A model generated the notes under the pieces. The model was not told where the DNA came from. It did no database searches and was given only the letters and a program-made list of their open reading frames with translations. The position numbers were made by a program, and so were the translations under genes. From NCBI GenBank assembly GCA_964655015.1, contig CAZZKR010000011.1, positions 21,444 through 85,443 on the forward strand: 64,000 bases of DNA, given 5' to 3'. Source of the DNA: an uncultured Nitrososphaeria archaeon (GTDB lineage Archaea > Thermoproteota > Nitrososphaeria_A > Caldarchaeales > Wolframiiraptoraceae). This document shows positions 4,760 through 54,956 of this stretch, in pieces (position 1 is the first letter of the stretch; the number at the start of each line of letters is the position of its first letter).

Positions 4760-4868
4760 TGGCGGGCCCGGTGGGATTCGAACCCACGACCTATGGGTTA
4801 CTCCGTTAAACAAACCTAAGAGCCCACCGCTCTAGGCGGAACCCCCTACCTGGCTGAGCTACGGGCCC
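4760..4868 (-). tRNA. tRNA-Lys(CUU), with an 18-nt canonical 37/38 intron, a 14-nt extra insertion in the D-loop and a genomically encoded CCA
   Basis: Reverse complement reads GGGCCCG-TA-GCTC-AGCCAGGTA[GGGGGTTCCGCCTA]-GAGC-G-GTGGG-CTCTTA[GGTTTGTTTAACGGAGTA]A-CCCAT-AGGTC-GTGGG-TTCGAAT-CCCAC-CGGGCCC-G-CCA. The anticodon-loop intron folds as a BHB (CUCU/GGAG central helix, bulges UAG and UAA). Confidence 0.85.
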
Positions 4869-8390: not shown

Positions 8391-9122
8391 ATGGAGCTTA
8401 CGGAAAGGGAACTGGAAAGATACAACAGACAAATTAGGCTCTTTGGTACGGAAGGTCAAAGTAAGCTGAAAGCCGCGAAGGTACTTGTAGCAGGAGTCGG
8501 AGGTCTTGGTACTGCGGCAGCTCTTTACTTGGCGGCAGCAGGTGTGGGCAAGCTTGTGTTGGTTGACAAAGATGTAGTCGAACTCAGCAATTTGAACCGT
8601 CAAATCCTATACACTACAGAGGATTTGGGAAAACCAAAGGCGGAGGTCGCAGCCAAGAGATTGAACTCATTAAATCCTGATATATCGATAGAGGCTTTAA
8701 CGCTCGAGATAAACGAGGAGAATGCGTCTGAAATCGTAAAGGGATGTAATGTTGTAGTAGACGGTCAGGATAATTATAAAATTAGATATGCGCTAAACGA
8801 TGCATGCATCTTACATAGAATACCCTTTGTACATGCTTCCGTGCATGCATACGAAGGTAGGCTGATGACGATTCTACCGGGTAAAGGACCGTGCTATAGG
8901 TGTCTCATACCCGTACCGCCGCCAGAAGTTAAGGGTTTTCCGATACTTGGCACGGTTCCAGGAACTATCTCGACGCTACAAGCTACAGAAGTGATTAAAA
9001 TCGTACTTGGTATAGGAAAGCTTTGCATTGGAAGGATGCTTGTATACGATGCTCTTGATATGGCATTCTATGAGATAAAGATTGAAAGAAATCCCGAATG
9101 CCCTTCATGCAGACTGCTTTAA
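8391..9122 (+). CDS. ThiF/MoeB/UbaA-type E1-like adenylyltransferase
   Basis: RYNRQI start, Rossmann VAGVGGLG, and two CxxC pairs (CYRC, CPSC). Confidence 0.8.
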   Translation: MELTERELERYNRQIRLFGTEGQSKLKAAKVLVAGVGGLGTAAALYLAAAGVGKLVLVDKDVVELSNLNRQILYTTEDLGKPKAEVAAKRLNSLNPDISIEALTLEINEENASEIVKGCNVVVDGQDNYKIRYALNDACILHRIPFVHASVHAYEGRLMTILPGKGPCYRCLIPVPPPEVKGFPILGTVPGTISTLQATEVIKIVLGIGKLCIGRMLVYDALDMAFYEIKIERNPECPSCRLL

Positions 9123-9170
9123 AAAAACGTTTATAAACATCAAAACTGAAAAATTGTATTGTGATTAAGT

Positions 9171-9429
9171 ATGCCAAAAGCATTCGTCCTGGTGAACACT
9201 GAGATACCCCGATAAAATAAGGGGCTCAAGAGGTTCTGAAGAAGAAGTGGTTAAGGAGCTAAGAAAGATCGACGCGGTTAAGGAGGCATTTATTGTCTAT
9301 GGTGTTTACGATGTGATAGTAAAGGTTGAAGCAGATAGTATGGACAAGCTTAAGGAAATAGTTTCATGGAAAATAAGAAGGTTGGATAAGGTCAGAAGCA
9401 CGCTCACGATGCTTGTGATCAGCGAGTAA
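9171..9429 (+). CDS. stand-alone Lrp/AsnC-type RAM-domain protein, frame interrupted by a 25-nt BHB-like insertion (predicted join 9171..9205,9231..9429; 77 aa)
   Basis: ATG 9171 is preceded by GTGAT (9161-9165) and TTTATAAA (9130-9137). It encodes MPKAFVLVNTE and then stops at 9213. The rest of the domain (GSEEEVVKELRKIDAVKEAFIVYGVYDVIVKVEADS...TLTMLVISE) lies in the +1 frame. Removing 25 nt gives a collinear family-like protein. Confidence 0.6.
9206..9230 (+). other. candidate bulge-helix-bulge intron inside a protein-coding gene
   Basis: Central helix U9200-G9203 pairs with C9225-A9228. The 3-nt bulges are 9204-9206 and 9229-9231. Inner helix C9207-C9210 pairs with G9221-G9224 around a 10-nt loop. 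The outer helix is 9194-9197/9233-9236 plus 9199/9232. Confidence 0.45.
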
Positions 9430-9855
9430 CTCTAACTGCTTAAAATAATACTCAAAGCTTAATCGCATCGCCTTAAAAGGTCTTAGTTATTATAAGGGTT
9501 CACGGTAAAGCTGATGAGATGGGCGGCGTAAGGCACGCATAACTACAAATTTTTTAGACTTTGTTACGAATTCAAAGAATATGGGAGTTTATAAAAAACA
9601 CAACAAAACTTATGTCAGGACAATAATGGTTCTACTAGGTAAACCTCCGGAAAAGACAACTGTAGTTAGATGAATGTTTACGTAGGAGACAAATGATAGA
9701 CCTCAAAGTTAATAGCCCCCTCACAACTTCCACAAAATAGTCGTTTAGCAGGTGTAATACCCATAACCTGTTGTATATATTACTAAATATAATACAGGGG
9801 CTTTTGGCTGAGAAACGCTCTTTTACTGCCTCTGAACCACCATTATCGAGCGGAA

Positions 9856-10032
9856 ATGGCTAGAGAGCTCGTAATAGTTGAGTCGAAAGTAAGGCAGCTA
9901 CTACCGGAGGGCATAAGACTCGCATCGGATGCGCTTGAAGGACTCGATCAAGTGGTCAGAGAAATAATCAAAAAAGCAGTTGAAAGATGCCAGGCCAACG
10001 GTCGCAAGACATTAATAAAAGAGGACTTCTAA
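9856..10032 (+). CDS. small histone-fold-like protein (DUF1931-like, 58 aa)
   Basis: Not in the ORF track because it is under 60 aa. MARELVIVESKVRQLLPEGIRLASDALEGLDQVVREIIKKAVERCQANGRKTLIKEDF aligns with helix1-L1-helix2-L2 of archaeal histones (..RVSDDA...A..AGRKTIK.ED). Confidence 0.55.
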   Translation: MARELVIVESKVRQLLPEGIRLASDALEGLDQVVREIIKKAVERCQANGRKTLIKEDF

Positions 10033-10136
10033 ACGACAGAACACTCAACAACTTGCCGTAAAGTCAAAAAAAGTTAGCCTGCAATCTCCTCGCATTTTTT
10101 AATTAGTTAATTGCAGTTATCATTGTTGTTCTAAGC

Positions 10137-11261
10137 TTAATCCACTGCTTTGAACCTCGACTTCAGTCTCTCTAAGATTGACGGCAACGTTGTATACTCC
10201 ATCTCGGACTCTTGGAGTCTTGCCGGTTGGAATTCGCCCATCGTCCTAAGGTAAATAGCGATCTCTGACGCAAACCTTCGCGAGTAGTCAAAGAACGGAT
10301 CTTCAAAGAGATCCGCCGGCTCTTTTCCGTTGACCCCGACGAGTTTTCCATTAGAGATTTGCCATCCCATGGCTATCACTCTAGGTGGTCCATCAAAATA
10401 CGAGACAACGTTCTGTCCCTTCTTGAACGATACTGGCATGAGTGGTCCTACATGCGAGCCACGCATCCAACCGCTTACGAGTGTTGGGACTGCAAAGGCA
10501 CTGAGCACTTCGCCGACGGCAGGTAATCCTGCCTGACACCTAACTATCATAACGGGGTCGTCCTTACCTACATACCTGCCGGCAATAAGGCTTAGTTTTG
10601 TCGTGCTGGTCGCCGCTGCGGGCTCTCTGTCTTTTGCCCTTAAAACCCTTGCGATAACATAATGGTTTGTTGTTCCGATCAAACCTATCAAATCATACAA
10701 CTCTTCGGGCGTCTTTAGCTCAACGGACTTTGATTCAATGAGGTCCAATACTTCAAAGATAAACCCTTCGTGCATGGTTGGATCGATAACCAGACCTGCT
10801 GTATTGTCCGGTGATGCAAATATCCTATATAATGGTATATTCCAAGCACCGGGCTCTGTTTTATCTGCAGCGAAGACTATTATGGGCTCTGACTTTCTTT
10901 CTTCGAACTCCATCTCCGCAACTCCTGGGCCCAGACCTTTGATGTTTCCACTAAAGGCATCACTCAAAAGATCCTGTCCTGCAGCATACAATTTCATGGG
11001 TTTCGATATTTTCTCTGTTATTTCGCGGAATGTATCCCATGCAAGGCCATGTATCTTGGGATTGTTCGGGCCCTTGTTGTGCGTCATAACAAGTATTATG
11101 TCATCGCCGCAGTGATTTACGTAGCCACTATTTATCAACCCTTCTTCTTCTGCATTGGTGAGCTTTCGTTCTGCATACTCTATCATAGCAGTATGGGGCT
11201 TATAGTGGCCCACAACGCTTCCAATATCCGCCTTTATAACTGATATCGTTACCTTTGACAG
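10137..11261 (-). CDS. fbp: bifunctional fructose-1,6-bisphosphate aldolase/phosphatase (class V FBPase); 5' end by homology, apparent CTG start
   Basis: Near-collinear with the archaeal FBPA/P family (SVIKADIGS, YAAGQDLLSDAFSGN, GWMRGSH, MEYTTLP). The conserved N-terminal KVTISVIKADIGS lies upstream of the first canonical start (GTG 11213). Confidence 0.85.
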   Translation of the reverse strand: MSKVTISVIKADIGSVVGHYKPHTAMIEYAERKLTNAEEEGLINSGYVNHCGDDIILVMTHNKGPNNPKIHGLAWDTFREITEKISKPMKLYAAGQDLLSDAFSGNIKGLGPGVAEMEFEERKSEPIIVFAADKTEPGAWNIPLYRIFASPDNTAGLVIDPTMHEGFIFEVLDLIESKSVELKTPEELYDLIGLIGTTNHYVIARVLRAKDREPAAATSTTKLSLIAGRYVGKDDPVMIVRCQAGLPAVGEVLSAFAVPTLVSGWMRGSHVGPLMPVSFKKGQNVVSYFDGPPRVIAMGWQISNGKLVGVNGKEPADLFEDPFFDYSRRFASEIAIYLRTMGEFQPARLQESEMEYTTLPSILERLKSRFKAVD

Positions 11262-11314: not shown

Positions 11315-12736
11315 TTAAATGCTAGAAAACTTTTGATGGATGTCGTCGTTGTATTCTCGGTATTTTAAGATGATGGGGCACCAATCCTTTTCTGGACAAT
11401 ACCCTAATAATTTGCACTTTTCGCCCATCATCGAACCTACAAGCTCGTTAGCTTTTAACACTGAAGCCCAAAGCCTATACGCTATACCCCTTTCCTCATG
11501 CTGGGCATAACTGCACGTCCTCGTTGCGACAAACCCGATTGGGTAAAGAAGGTTAAACCCATCGTATACCCTAATCACATAAATCTTCACGGCTTGGGGA
11601 ATGATGTATGCAGCAGATGCGGGCGATGCACCTGAAGCGATAAGTTCTGCATAAGTTTTTAAGGCCATGTTGATGGTATCCAAAAATCGCTTTCTTAGGT
11701 CGGAATTCCTATTGATGGTCGGTGGAACTACGGCCCATCTTTCGACATCCTTTGAAGCCCTCTGCACGGCCGCATATATAGACTCGACAACCGTAGGCAC
11801 TGTTCTATGTCTGATTGCTTGGTGGTATGCCACAAGCGACATGGGTTCCAACATGCTTGCATATATTAGATGAGCAATTTGTTCCAAGCTTCCCAACTTT
11901 ATGTACGAGAGAGTACGTTCGCCCCCTATTATTCTAAAGTCAAGCAATTTTGGCTCATATGGCAAGCCGTTTTCTTCTGCAATCTTAGTAATTATATCTT
12001 CATCCTTGAATGGGTTTGGCAAAGGGTACGCGACGGGTCCACCATTAAACTTCATCCTCGCTCTGAAGATTGCCGGAGATACTTTCTCAATCATGTTGCT
12101 TATTTTATTCGCAAGAATTGCAACCTCGTTTGGAATGAGTCTGGATGACTTACTCTCAAGACCGAGCCTGATTAGCGGAATCATAGATTCAAGTGTTGTG
12201 CTTACAAAAAGGGAGGTCTTTATACCGAGCGGTAAAACATAACGTGCATCCTCAATCGGTATGCCCTCATCGCAAAATCGTGAGTAAACTTCAAAGCACG
12301 TCTCAGCAGAATGCTGGTATACGTCCTCTAAGCCCTTTGCGTTTATCTCTTCAGGACATAAAAGGTAAGACGAATCGACTTTTTTCCTCCTTTGCGACTC
12401 CTGAAGATAAGATCCAAAGCGTGACGCCACGAGTAGCATAGAACCTATCCTGCTACATCCTCTAACCTCAAACTGAATGGATACGCTTGTCGATAGTGAC
12501 GCATGGCCTCTTCGTGTGGATTCGCTATGCATCTTTGAAGCGAACTTTTCCAAATCCTTTCCTTTCTCAAGAAAGCTTTGCAACCTTTCTTCAAGTGATA
12601 TGCCCTCAAAAGTTCCAGTTCCCTCCAATGCGATAAAAATATCTGGCTCCAAAGTTAAGGTTCTTTGACCTATCGATACTTCGCTTTTAGGTCCGTAAGA
12701 ATAGAGATAAACCTCTAGGTCTTCGGGTCTTTGCAA
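11315..12736 (-). CDS. ThyX-family (flavin-dependent thymidylate synthase)-like protein, tandem two-domain form
   Basis: 473 aa with two ThyX-like halves. Half 1 has HASL..FEVRGCSR..QESQRR and EDARYVLP but lacks RHR. Half 2 has AIRHRTV and AQHEERG but lacks the SxRY serine. Confidence 0.55.
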   Translation of the reverse strand: MQRPEDLEVYLYSYGPKSEVSIGQRTLTLEPDIFIALEGTGTFEGISLEERLQSFLEKGKDLEKFASKMHSESTRRGHASLSTSVSIQFEVRGCSRIGSMLLVASRFGSYLQESQRRKKVDSSYLLCPEEINAKGLEDVYQHSAETCFEVYSRFCDEGIPIEDARYVLPLGIKTSLFVSTTLESMIPLIRLGLESKSSRLIPNEVAILANKISNMIEKVSPAIFRARMKFNGGPVAYPLPNPFKDEDIITKIAEENGLPYEPKLLDFRIIGGERTLSYIKLGSLEQIAHLIYASMLEPMSLVAYHQAIRHRTVPTVVESIYAAVQRASKDVERWAVVPPTINRNSDLRKRFLDTINMALKTYAELIASGASPASAAYIIPQAVKIYVIRVYDGFNLLYPIGFVATRTCSYAQHEERGIAYRLWASVLKANELVGSMMGEKCKLLGYCPEKDWCPIILKYREYNDDIHQKFSSI

Positions 12737-20954: not shown

Positions 20955-22187
20955 CTACATATTAGCGGACATCCCTTCTAAACGTTCAATTAAATTTTGC
21001 GTAATCTTGCTCAATGTAAATTCTGAAGCCCTTTTTGCTGCGTTCTTCCCCATTTCGCTTGCAAGATCTTCATCATTTACCAGTTTCAAAACGGCCTCTG
21101 TTGCACCTTTTATGTCTTCTGGACCGTTGACATGGATGCCGTCGATTCCATTCCTGATTAGCCAACGCTGGCCGCCAATTGCCGAAGTGATTACTGGTTT
21201 TCCGGCATACATGAATTCTAACTGCGTGAGTCCTAGAGCCTCCATTTTGCTCATGATTATGTTGGCGTATGATGCTTTTATCAGTGATATTTTCTCGTCA
21301 TCGCTAATCTCACCAATGTATTTAAAATTTGGGAGAGTTTTAGTGGCTTTAATTAGAATATCGGCTTGATCGGATGGTGAACCTGCCGCAACAAATATTA
21401 TATCTTTTCTGTTGCGCAGGTTAGTAGCTACTTTTACTATGGCAGCAGGATTCTTTCGCTTTTCTATAGTTCCTATATATGCTATAATTTTGACGTCTCT
21501 AGGTATGTTAAACCTTGAATACACATCCACTCCGCCTAGATTTTTGAACGCTTCTTCGTCAATCCCTCCAGGATAAAGGTGACACTTTCTAGCATCTGCG
21601 CCCAATTCGACCATTTGGTCAATCTCAATGGGTGTTGTGCAAAGTATCAAATTCGCCGTCTTGAAAATTGTAGGAAATACTGTGACATTCCATGCCTCCC
21701 TATACAACCTTTCAATCGGTGCATAGTGTATAGGACTCGGAGGTTGGTAGTGGGGCATAAAACAAGCTATCACCCCCCTATCCTTTAACCCCTCCCTAAC
21801 CATCATGTCGTTCCATAATTTAAAACGGGCAAGTTCTTCTGGACCATTCCATAATGTGCTATGAGCTATGAAGCATTCTACTCCTAGGTCTTCAACGATG
21901 TGTCTGAAGATTGATTGTGCATCCCTAAGCATTATTCTCCTCGGAGGCCAACTAGATACGTACCCATCCATCCTTATCACAGGAACACCAAATTCTTCCT
22001 TAATCACATAGCCCCTCACACTCTTTAGCACTTGTTCATACCAAGGAACGGGTTTTCCGTCGTGGAATAAAGTGGATAAAAGAAAGGCATCCTTTCCTTG
22101 CTTACGCAGTTCTTTCGTCATTCGAAGAGCGACAAGTTCCTGACCCTTAGTCAAGCTAGTCTGGTACATCAGTACGGCAATTTTCAA
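20955..22187 (-). CDS. GT4-family (GT-B) glycosyltransferase
   Basis: C-terminal EX7E-type motif (SKMEALGLTQLEFMYAGKPVITS). 410 aa. Confidence 0.75.
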   Translation of the reverse strand: MKIAVLMYQTSLTKGQELVALRMTKELRKQGKDAFLLSTLFHDGKPVPWYEQVLKSVRGYVIKEEFGVPVIRMDGYVSSWPPRRIMLRDAQSIFRHIVEDLGVECFIAHSTLWNGPEELARFKLWNDMMVREGLKDRGVIACFMPHYQPPSPIHYAPIERLYREAWNVTVFPTIFKTANLILCTTPIEIDQMVELGADARKCHLYPGGIDEEAFKNLGGVDVYSRFNIPRDVKIIAYIGTIEKRKNPAAIVKVATNLRNRKDIIFVAAGSPSDQADILIKATKTLPNFKYIGEISDDEKISLIKASYANIIMSKMEALGLTQLEFMYAGKPVITSAIGGQRWLIRNGIDGIHVNGPEDIKGATEAVLKLVNDEDLASEMGKNAAKRASEFTLSKITQNLIERLEGMSANM

Positions 22188-29339: not shown

Positions 29340-30329
29340 ATGTCCGTGGGAATGCGAGAGATTAATGTTGCAATAATTGGTGCAGGTTTTTGGGGCAGAA
29401 ATCATGCGAGGGTACTTAAAGAGATATCTGGTGTTAAGTTAACCCACGTTTGCGATATAGATATAAACAGAGCAAAGGAATTGGCGTTGAGGTACGGGAT
29501 TCCAAAATACACGACAAACTATAAGGAAGTTCTATCCGACGACGTCGATGCGGTTATTATATGTACACCATCAACCACTCATGCTGAGATAGCTCTTGCG
29601 GTTATAAGGGAAGAAAAGCATGTTTTAATAGAGAAACCTATGGCTACCACGATAAGGCAGGCGGAGGACATAGTCGCTGAAGCAAGACGTAATAAGAGTA
29701 TGGTGATGGTCGGTTTCATAGAAAGGTTTAATCCAGCAGTCGAGTTAGGAAAGGAACTAATAGAAAACGGCGAGATAGGCCGTATCATACTCTCCTATAG
29801 CAAGAGAATAGGTAGCTGGCCTGAAAGGATAGGTGACATAGGTGTCGTGAAAGATACGGCTATACATGACATAGACTTGGCAATGTATATATTTAATGCT
29901 GAACCAATCAGTGTATATGCTAAGGGAGGCTCCATAAAGCATAAACTCGAGGACCATGTTCAAGCCGTTTTATCATTTGAGGGTAACAAGAGCGCATTGA
30001 TAGAGGCCAATTGGCTTACGCCTAGGAAGAAGCGTGAAATGCATATAACCGGCGAGGATGGTGTTATTAGCATACAGTTCATTTTAAGAGAGATTGTCGT
30101 GGAAAAGGCTGAAGGTAGCAGATCCCCGATGGTGAAGCAGGTTGAACCCCTAATGGCAGAGGTGCAGTATTTTATAAACTGTATCAGAAACGATGAGAAA
30201 CCGTTAGTCAGTGAAGTTGAAGGATTAAAGGCTACACTCGTTGCAGAGGCTATACTCGAGTCCATGAAGACGGGAGCTGTTGTGAACCTAGAAGAGTTTA
30301 AAGATAGGGAGTTGACTATAACAATCTAA
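29340..30329 (+). CDS. Gfo/Idh/MocA-family NAD(P)-dependent sugar oxidoreductase
   Basis: IIGAGFWGRNHA Rossmann motif and VLIEKPMA motif. Confidence 0.8.
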   Translation: MSVGMREINVAIIGAGFWGRNHARVLKEISGVKLTHVCDIDINRAKELALRYGIPKYTTNYKEVLSDDVDAVIICTPSTTHAEIALAVIREEKHVLIEKPMATTIRQAEDIVAEARRNKSMVMVGFIERFNPAVELGKELIENGEIGRIILSYSKRIGSWPERIGDIGVVKDTAIHDIDLAMYIFNAEPISVYAKGGSIKHKLEDHVQAVLSFEGNKSALIEANWLTPRKKREMHITGEDGVISIQFILREIVVEKAEGSRSPMVKQVEPLMAEVQYFINCIRNDEKPLVSEVEGLKATLVAEAILESMKTGAVVNLEEFKDRELTITI

Positions 30330-30358
30330 AGTTTATACGTGAACATGAAGGTGGTTTT

Positions 30359-54852: not shown

Positions 54853-54956
54853 TGGGGCCGCTGGGATTCGAACCCAGGATTTCCAGCGCCCCAGGCTGGA
54901 GTGTTCTACCCCGCAGAATTACTGCGGAGTCATAGACCATGCTAGACCACGGCCCC
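54853..54956 (-). tRNA. tRNA-Pro(GGG) with a 26-28-nt non-canonical intron between the D-arm and the anticodon stem
   Basis: Reverse complement reads GGGGCCG-TG-GTCT-AGCATGGTCTA-TGAC-T[CCGCAGTAATTCTGCGGGGTAGAACACT]CCAGC-CTGGGGC-GCTGG-AAATC-CTGGG-TTCGAAT-CCCAG-CGGCCCC-A. No encoded CCA. Confidence 0.85.

Follow-up and report, generated by a model that had tools for sequence, protein, structure and literature searches.

The introns of archaeal tRNAs carry hBHBh' or relaxed HBh' forms of a motif termed bulge-helix-bulge (BHB), as Marck and Grosjean are said to have described in 2003, and an intron in the pre-mRNA of the pseudouridine synthase gene cbf5 was reportedly characterized by Watanabe et al. 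in 2002 and by Yoshinari et al. in 2006. Among introns within archaeal coding sequences, only that of cbf5 in Desulfurococcales and Sulfolobales has been confirmed, whereas others have been predicted (PMC2738675); cbf5 introns comprise 16-44 nt and their motifs are often relaxed (Yokobori et al. 2009, PMC2738675). A survey of 2020 described a BHB intron in the 5' untranslated region (UTR) of the Haloferax volcanii gene HVO_1309, with cbf5 as the sole other mRNA case (Schwarz et al., PMC7714728). Here we analyzed a DNA stretch of 64,000 nt (the window; positions 21,444 to 85,443 of contig CAZZKR010000011.1, assembly GCA_964655015.1) of an uncultured Nitrososphaeria archaeon assigned to the Caldarchaeales (Wolframiiraptoraceae). 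To judge by its sequence, the gene at positions 9171-9429 encodes a stand-alone RAM-domain (Lrp/AsnC ligand-binding) protein of 77 aa and is interrupted within the codon of Ile12. It is quite probable that the interrupting 25 nt (9206-9230) are a BHB intron that would be removed from the RAM-domain mRNA by the tRNA splicing endonuclease. This reading had been proposed in a first-pass annotation of the DNA, and the product, the conservation and the consensus fold support it.

The first-pass annotation had also stated that endonuclease-spliced mRNA introns in archaea are documented essentially only for cbf5. This agrees with the literature, to which the HVO_1309 intron has to be added; later reviews and structural papers cite only these two cases. 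In the literature searched, which covered subscription journals incompletely, we came across no description of an intron in a gene of the Lrp/AsnC or RAM type, nor of one in any protein gene of Aigarchaeota.

The putative RAM intron has much in common with those of cbf5. Both are short BHB-type introns within coding sequences, often with a relaxed motif; both occur in hosts with a hetero-oligomeric endonuclease, predicted for the RAM host from its lineage, and in restricted lineages with intron-less relatives, and both were missed by annotation or called frameshifts. They differ in gene and host, cbf5 encoding a pseudouridine synthase in Thermoprotei, whereas the RAM case belongs to the Caldarchaeales within the Nitrososphaerota. 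Moreover, splicing of cbf5 has been confirmed experimentally, whereas that of the RAM gene is predicted from sequence, and, with the putative intron only 12 codons away from the start, the RAM gene differs from cbf5 in having a tiny 5' exon. As proposed for the RAM gene, an mRNA, and not a tRNA or rRNA, is the substrate of the tRNA splicing endonuclease in HVO_1309, but its intron breaks no reading frame, since it resides in the untranslated leader, and its host is a euryarchaeon with a homodimeric enzyme. With archaeal tRNA introns the RAM element shares the two 3-nt bulges, the 4-bp helix, predicted cuts after the second bulge base and a similar size range; it is different in that its exons are mRNA and that codons 8-10 and 13-14 make up its outer helix, which has an unpaired A. 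Taken together, the element would work like a cbf5 intron while standing outside the class specific to that gene, and it agrees with the structural definition of a BHB intron, slightly relaxed on its 3' side.

Interrupted reading frame and predicted product

The frame beginning with the ATG at 9171 reads MPKAFVLVNTEIPR and is closed by a TAA at 9213-9215, which lies within the predicted intron. The remainder of the domain (GSEEEVVKELRK...TLTMLVISE; GSEEEVV...) is encoded in the +1 frame, which is open from 9196, the coding part beginning at 9232 and ending with the stop codon at 9427-9429. Mechanical ORF finding in the window yielded for the RAM gene solely an open reading frame (ORF) of 60 aa starting with GTG 9247. 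In silico removal of 9206-9230 joins the two parts to a single protein of 77 aa, of which tblastn placed residues 1-12 at 9171-9206 and the remainder (13-77) at 9232-9426; a second copy of the spliced protein was not detected in the window by tblastn. Exon 1 would thus comprise 9171-9205 (+), encoding M1-E11 and contributing AT, with which the codon of Ile12 begins, and it corresponds to the N-terminus MPxAFVLINTEIG of the orthologues, while exon 2 (9231-9429, +) would supply the third base of this codon, G13-E77 and the stop.

The first-pass annotation had envisaged a family-typical 77-aa ORF reading ...NTE-I-GSEEE... and had suggested aligning both frames with PF01037. This expectation was borne out. 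The spliced protein matched the profile over its entire length (1-73 of 73, E 8e-16, 58.1 bits at a cut-off of 25), whereas the 60-aa ORF covered positions 16-73 only. Like the stand-alone PF01037 proteins of known structure (PDB 2zbc, 2cvi, 2e1a), the spliced product spans the whole Pfam domain, and it could be aligned without gaps across the junction to the nearest solved structure, 2zbc (residues 1-75, E 6.6e-24). With the best 120 uninterrupted proteins listed it shares 75-83% identity, 97-100% of its length being covered; these proteins have 75-116 aa, most of them 77-81 aa, and their named sources are Aigarchaeota/Caldarchaeales, Nitrososphaerota and Bathyarchaeia. In 16 aligned uninterrupted orthologues (74-82% identical), residues E11, I12 and G13 around the junction are invariant. 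Four symmetric cut registers are conceivable within the bulges; cuts after bulge base 0 or 1 would give Arg at the junction, while cuts after base 2, the canonical site, or base 3 would give Ile. The canonical register is thus one of those that restore the frame together with the invariant E-I-G.

Upstream of exon 1 a TATA-box-like element, TTTATAAA (9130-9137, +), is preceded by an A-rich stretch resembling a B recognition element (BRE) and may act as promoter. Its core CGTTTATAAA is the same in all aligned haplotypes (see below). The element ends 34 nt upstream of the exon-1 ATG, and transcription would therefore start just 5' of exon 1. A scan for sigma-70 promoters and terminators was uninformative, as the DNA is archaeal. 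A Shine-Dalgarno-like sequence, GTGAT (9161-9165, +), is situated 5 nt ahead of the start codon and may serve in translation initiation; GTGA is kept in all haplotypes, relatives read GTGAG, and the ATG is conserved as well. All these positions, along with those of the stop codon, the +1 frame and the helices described in the following section, had been given in the first-pass annotation and were confirmed from the sequence.

Folding of the insertion

RNAalifold was applied to eight distinct 61-nt sequences, and their consensus is a BHB spanning 9194-9236 (+) with the helices as they had originally been drawn. In the outer helix, 9194-9197 pairs with 9233-9236, to which the isolated pair C9199-G9232 can be added. 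The central helix consists of four Watson-Crick pairs between UGAG (9200-9203) and CUCA (9225-9228), and the inner helix, CCCC (9207-9210) with GGGG (9221-9224), encloses a loop of 10 nt. The 5' bulge AUA (9204-9206) is clean, and the 3' bulge AGA (9229-9231) reads AGA or AAA among the haplotypes. Two 3-nt bulges, a 4-bp helix and the flanking helices h (exon with exon, the outer helix) and h' (intron with intron, the inner helix) are thus present, one haplotype (L194) having a single mismatch in h. When the BHB structure was imposed on the sequences, 99% of the cells paired, versus at most 61% when the partners were slid.

The folding check recommended in the first-pass annotation therefore produced the expected BHB as consensus, but the minimum free energy (MFE) structure of the single sequence takes a slightly different register containing the pair C9199-G9230, a pair that four of the eight sequences cannot form. 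The fold-energy z-scores, -1.1 for 61 nt and -2.5 to -3.0 for the 47-nt core, are weak when taken alone.

Sequence variation of exons and insertion

The same insertion was found in 11 distinct haplotypes, which fall into six groups with a nucleotide identity of 79-94% in the neighboring ThiF gene. To obtain the haplotypes, the 60-aa ORF was looked up by exact match, as were six 60-aa proteins 97-98% identical to it. In the spliced frame, six first, two second and 39 third codon positions are variable (of 78 each); 36 codons vary synonymously only, and six carry conservative amino acid changes. Among the 11 haplotypes we did not find further indels or stops in this frame, and the spliced protein is at least 95% identical across the six groups. 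Purifying selection therefore acts on exon 1 as well as exon 2 when they are read in the spliced frame, a pattern that marks the gene as functional and translated, with exon 1 as part of its product.

The same figures bear on the assumption that the gene is a pseudogene, inactivated by the 25-nt insertion and now drifting. The frame is indeed broken, with a stop after 14 codons, and a spare copy is possible, because other Caldarchaeales have an uninterrupted family member next to the gene for TiaS. Yet a drifting gene should hardly have stayed free of additional lesions in six groups, with 39 of the 47 variable exon sites at third positions, nor does drift agree with insertion helices that are more conserved than synonymous sites. 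We regard this explanation as extremely improbable.

Exon 1 alone contains six variable sites, five of which are synonymous (p ~0.005 in a rough binomial test with a neutral expectation of one synonymous change in four). Its synonymous variation resides entirely in codons 4-7, just upstream of the BHB helices. This result is pertinent to a rival reading, according to which the cell makes just the 60-aa protein from GTG 9247, or one truncated in a similar way, and the upstream ORF of 14 codons represents a leader peptide or a remnant. The 60-aa ORF is indeed what all gene callers annotated. However, the 60-aa protein would be devoid of the first strand of the RAM fold, exon 1 is the N-terminus of the family residue for residue and evolves as coding sequence by the count just given, and the putative promoter and the Shine-Dalgarno-like element stand before exon 1, not before GTG 9247. 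The truncated product is therefore highly improbable as the sole product.

Within the insertion, only unpaired bases vary. The helix bases, which make up the intronic strands of the inner and central helices, vary at none of 12 positions, and loop or bulge bases at six of 13 (Fisher p = 0.015). Five of the variable bases belong to the loop, and the sixth is the central one of the 3' bulge (AGA>AAA). In comparison with the exon third positions (39 of 78 variable), the intronic helix bases are likewise more constant (p = 0.0009), and the five third-position bases that lie within the BHB helices (9194, 9197, 9200, 9203 and 9234) are all invariant.

Chance expectation and alternative readings

Both strands of the window were scanned for a strict BHB, defined by four Watson-Crick pairs in the central helix, two bulges of 3 nt each, 4 bp or more in the inner helix and 5 bp or more in the outer helix, where a single bulged base was tolerated. 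Two matches were obtained, the RAM element and a motif at 12344-12413 (-). The latter, which has an 8-bp inner helix and would predict a 65-nt intron, is situated inside an intact 473-aa Thy1 ORF and was rejected as a chance-level match. A relaxed scan combined with ORF merging proved too noisy, with about 930 motifs and about 95 repairs of ORF pairs; its most striking repair, at 30311-30330, just joins two unrelated adjacent genes. Further copies of the 28-nt element were not found in the window.

Several points weigh against the assumption of an intron. Unless the isolated pair C9199-G9232 forms, the 3' bulge is not clean but part of a 2x4 internal loop, which makes the motif slightly relaxed, and the outer helix is imperfect, A9198 being unpaired. 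Dinucleotide-shuffled sequences yielded about 1.7 strict motifs per window (both strands), so that the BHB motif alone is not significant, and relaxed motifs are far more frequent still. No compensatory substitution was observed, the 13 pairs all being invariant save the one mismatch in L194, and the structural support consequently consists in conservation, not in covariation. The spliced 77-aa product was absent from the protein collection searched, where the best full-length match is 83% identical. Finally, the sequence CCC-CGA-UAA at the break resembles a +1 slip-plus-hungry-codon site, and CGA accounts for only 6% of the Arg codons in the long ORFs of the window.

To the question of chance it can be added that the RAM element is the only strict match outside an intact gene, and that its position is improbable: the likelihood of a strict motif which coincides with a frame break and whose canonical cuts rebuild the invariant E-I-G is about 1.3e-5 per position and strand.

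The slippery sequence leads to the only serious rival of the intron, serious because CGA is rare, namely a programmed +1 frameshift. Sites that combine a slip with a hungry codon are known from prfB- and Ty1-type frameshifting. In the RAM gene the ribosome would slip on CCC-C (9207-9210) with the rare CGA in the A site, followed by UAA, and the product MPKAFVLVNTEIP-DKIRGSR-GSEEE... would contain eight extra residues in the beta1-alpha1 loop, for which AFVLVNTEIPDK would be a diagnostic peptide. The +1 frame, open from 9196, would permit this, and the cbf5 introns were themselves earlier mistaken for frameshifts. Several results, however, speak for splicing. Extra loop residues occur in none of the 16 aligned orthologues and in none of about 160 more distant loci among the matches listed. 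Four of the six variable sites of the insertion lie at codon positions 1 or 2 of the +1 frame (K>R, I>T, I>A, R>K), in contrast to the exons with eight first- or second-position and 39 third-position sites; thus, slippery and slow codons are present, but the insertion is not evolving as coding sequence. In addition, a frameshift leaves unexplained both the complementarity of CUCA and UGAG with two 3-nt bulges 4 bp apart and why the deletion of exactly 25 nt rebuilds the invariant E-I-G. On this basis we consider frameshifting very unlikely.

Distribution of the insertion and gene neighborhood

Close relatives were collected by protein search with the 60-aa ORF and by exact look-ups. The look-ups gave dozens of contigs from independent ENA, JGI, Logan and NCBI assemblies covering several continents, including Great Boiling Spring metagenomes and several named assemblies of metagenome-assembled genomes (MAGs), and every one of these contigs has the insertion and the ThiF-RAM arrangement. 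GCA_023252755.1, GCA_023268355.1 and GCA_023268235.1 are examples of MAGs with the gene. The occurrence of the insertion in 11 haplotypes, six groups and dozens of assemblies made independently excludes an artefact as well as a recent lesion of one strain. Short hairpins can cause assembly errors, and the first-pass annotation had named an artefact of this kind as one case that would overturn its reading; it is excluded by the identical insertion in assemblies produced by different pipelines. Translational bypass from ATA 9204 to the matching ATA 9217, which the window sequence would allow, fails because the landing codon is changed to ACG or GCG in two haplotypes (L195 and L196). We assign practically no chance to either of these two explanations.

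For comparison with other lineages, a genome collection was scanned with the spliced protein and metagenomes with exon 2. In the approximately 160 more distant loci among the matches listed, uninterrupted homologues all of them, the N-terminus is contiguous and no intron was found; close relatives were not among these matches. They include Ca. Geocrenenecus huangii, a member of the same family. Thus the comparison of orthologous loci, likewise suggested in the first-pass annotation, places the insertion in six related groups and not in the stand-alone PF01037 proteins of the other lineages listed. Exceptions unrelated to the intron are a frameshifted paralogue (L089) and L193, a homologue obtained by a look-up of its own, with a frameshift of 1 nt. 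The latter (P0165, 63 aa, about 2440-2700) had been considered as a second truncated lineage and was rejected, as the gene carries a single extra base, ATGCCAAGT(C)GCC(TTC)..., and no intron. Either an error of sequencing or a genuine frameshift probably accounts for the extra base. The L193 locus is located on a 402-kb contig whose name suggests a long-read assembly. This case shows that a short gene call in the RAM family is by itself no sign of an intron.

The gene order in the intron-bearing lineage is ThiF, RAM, a 58-aa gene and the gene for a fructose-1,6-bisphosphate (FBP) aldolase/phosphatase. Other Caldarchaeales possess an uninterrupted family member between reverse gyrase and tiaS, away from ThiF (loci compared: 8391-11213 of the window, L014, L017 and L209-L218). 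As the neighborhood differs between intron-bearing and uninterrupted genes, the intron goes together with relocation or paralogy. One tiaS-linked uninterrupted copy (P0014) co-occurs with an intron locus in one metagenome; it probably stems from another organism because its GC content is 38% versus 43-44% for the intron loci. The names carried by the mates of the neighboring ThiF protein in its 90%-identity cluster point to Ca. Terraquivivens yellowstonensis (Wolframiiraptoraceae, Caldarchaeales), which places the organism within the Caldarchaeales (Aigarchaeota) and close to Ca. Terraquivivens; the intron probably arose in the lineage that includes the latter.

The 11 nt before exon 2 proper (GGGGCTCAAGA, 9221-9231) match the next 11 nt (GGTTCTGAAGA, 9232-9242) at eight of 11 positions. 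This imperfect tandem repeat (9221-9242) might be a trace of an origin of the intron by local duplication, or it might be due to chance.

Splicing substrates and proposed pathway

The window also contains substrates for which BHB splicing would be required. A tRNA-Lys(CUU) gene (4763-4868, -; 106 nt, Rfam; anticodon CUU read from the sequence) harbors two insertions, and ARAGORN gave no call for it. Its anticodon arm together with an 18-nt intron after position 37 folds as a textbook BHB. To obtain a mature anticodon loop from this tRNA, both bulges have to be cut behind base 2 (UA/G and UA/A, the slash denoting the cut), which agrees with the cut register that the first-pass annotation had transferred from here to the RAM gene. 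The second insertion, of about 14-16 nt, resides in the D-loop (AGCCAGGUA[GGGGGUUCCGCCUA]GAGC) and looks like a non-canonical intron. Non-canonical positions of tRNA introns are typical of hosts with endonucleases of broad specificity. The genome thus appears to carry active BHB splicing substrates in its tRNA introns. Aigarchaeota have been assigned an (alpha-beta)2 EndA, which accepts relaxed motifs in non-tRNA contexts (PMC5829648).

For the RAM gene we infer a pathway in which the promoter, the cleavage, the ligation and the enzymes involved are proposed as follows. The gene would be transcribed from the TATA box at 9130, and the pre-mRNA would fold such that 9194-9203 of exon 1 pairs with 9225-9228 of the intron and 9232-9236 of exon 2. 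The host tRNA splicing endonuclease, of the (alpha-beta)2 type in Aigarchaeota, would cut both 3-nt bulges behind base 2, releasing the 25-nt intron ACCCCGAUAAAAUAAGGGGCUCAAG, and an RtcB-type ligase would join ...ACUGAGAU to AGGUUCU..., creating the junction ...AACACUGAGAU/AGGUUCUGAA.... Translation of the joined mRNA would give MPKAFVLVNTEIGSEEEVV...LVISE with the junction-spanning tryptic peptide AFVLVNTEIGSEEEVVK, while unspliced mRNA would yield a 14-aa peptide only.

The intron is most likely constitutive and tolerated, and not a proven regulator. The splicing-dependent expression switch suggested in the first-pass annotation is purely speculative, but the position of the intron makes one form of it conceivable. 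As the interruption comes after only 12 codons and codons 8-14 supply the helices, the first translating ribosome and the endonuclease would compete for the same RNA, and this competition might act as a kinetic gate setting the yield of RAM protein. We think a gate rather unlikely. If it existed, the yield would depend on endonuclease activity, temperature or the coupling of transcription and translation, and the gene would be an archaeal counterpart of regulated unconventional splicing of the HAC1/XBP1 type.

If the RAM element is indeed spliced, it would be the second protein family with a BHB intron inside the coding sequence, in another gene family and another phylum-level lineage than cbf5. 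The reach of the tRNA splicing endonuclease into mRNAs would then not be a one-off, and a second system would be at hand for how such introns arise and persist. It would further flag a systematic annotation error, as each gene call at the intron loci is a truncated 60-aa protein. Relatives within the Wolframiiraptoraceae grow in enrichment culture (PMC9246946), and the putative intron should be experimentally reachable, with the junction, the 25-nt intron and the junction peptide as specific targets.

Further observations

Two features near the RAM gene were recorded. In several intron-bearing lineages (L179, L180, L182, L189-L192, L194 and L206) a gene for a metallo-beta-lactamase/beta-CASP-like protein of 480-482 aa (Lactamase_B, RMMBL) lies directly downstream of RAM; it is absent from the arrangement of the window. 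The 58-aa ORF at 9856-10032 (+) gave a marginal histone-fold match (PF00808, 21.6 bits at a cut-off of 21.4). At an identity of at least 90% this ORF is present on many Nitrososphaerota contigs, always near the RAM gene in the intron lineage, and the source records list it as hypothetical protein.

At 54853-54912 (-), a 60-nt tRNA-like sequence was detected (Rfam tRNA, 33.5 bits), for which ARAGORN made no call. It shows acceptor, anticodon-like and T arms, while the D arm is nearly gone (3 nt versus about 15 expected). The sequence could be a degenerate tRNA, the remnant of an integration site or a tRNA-like element.

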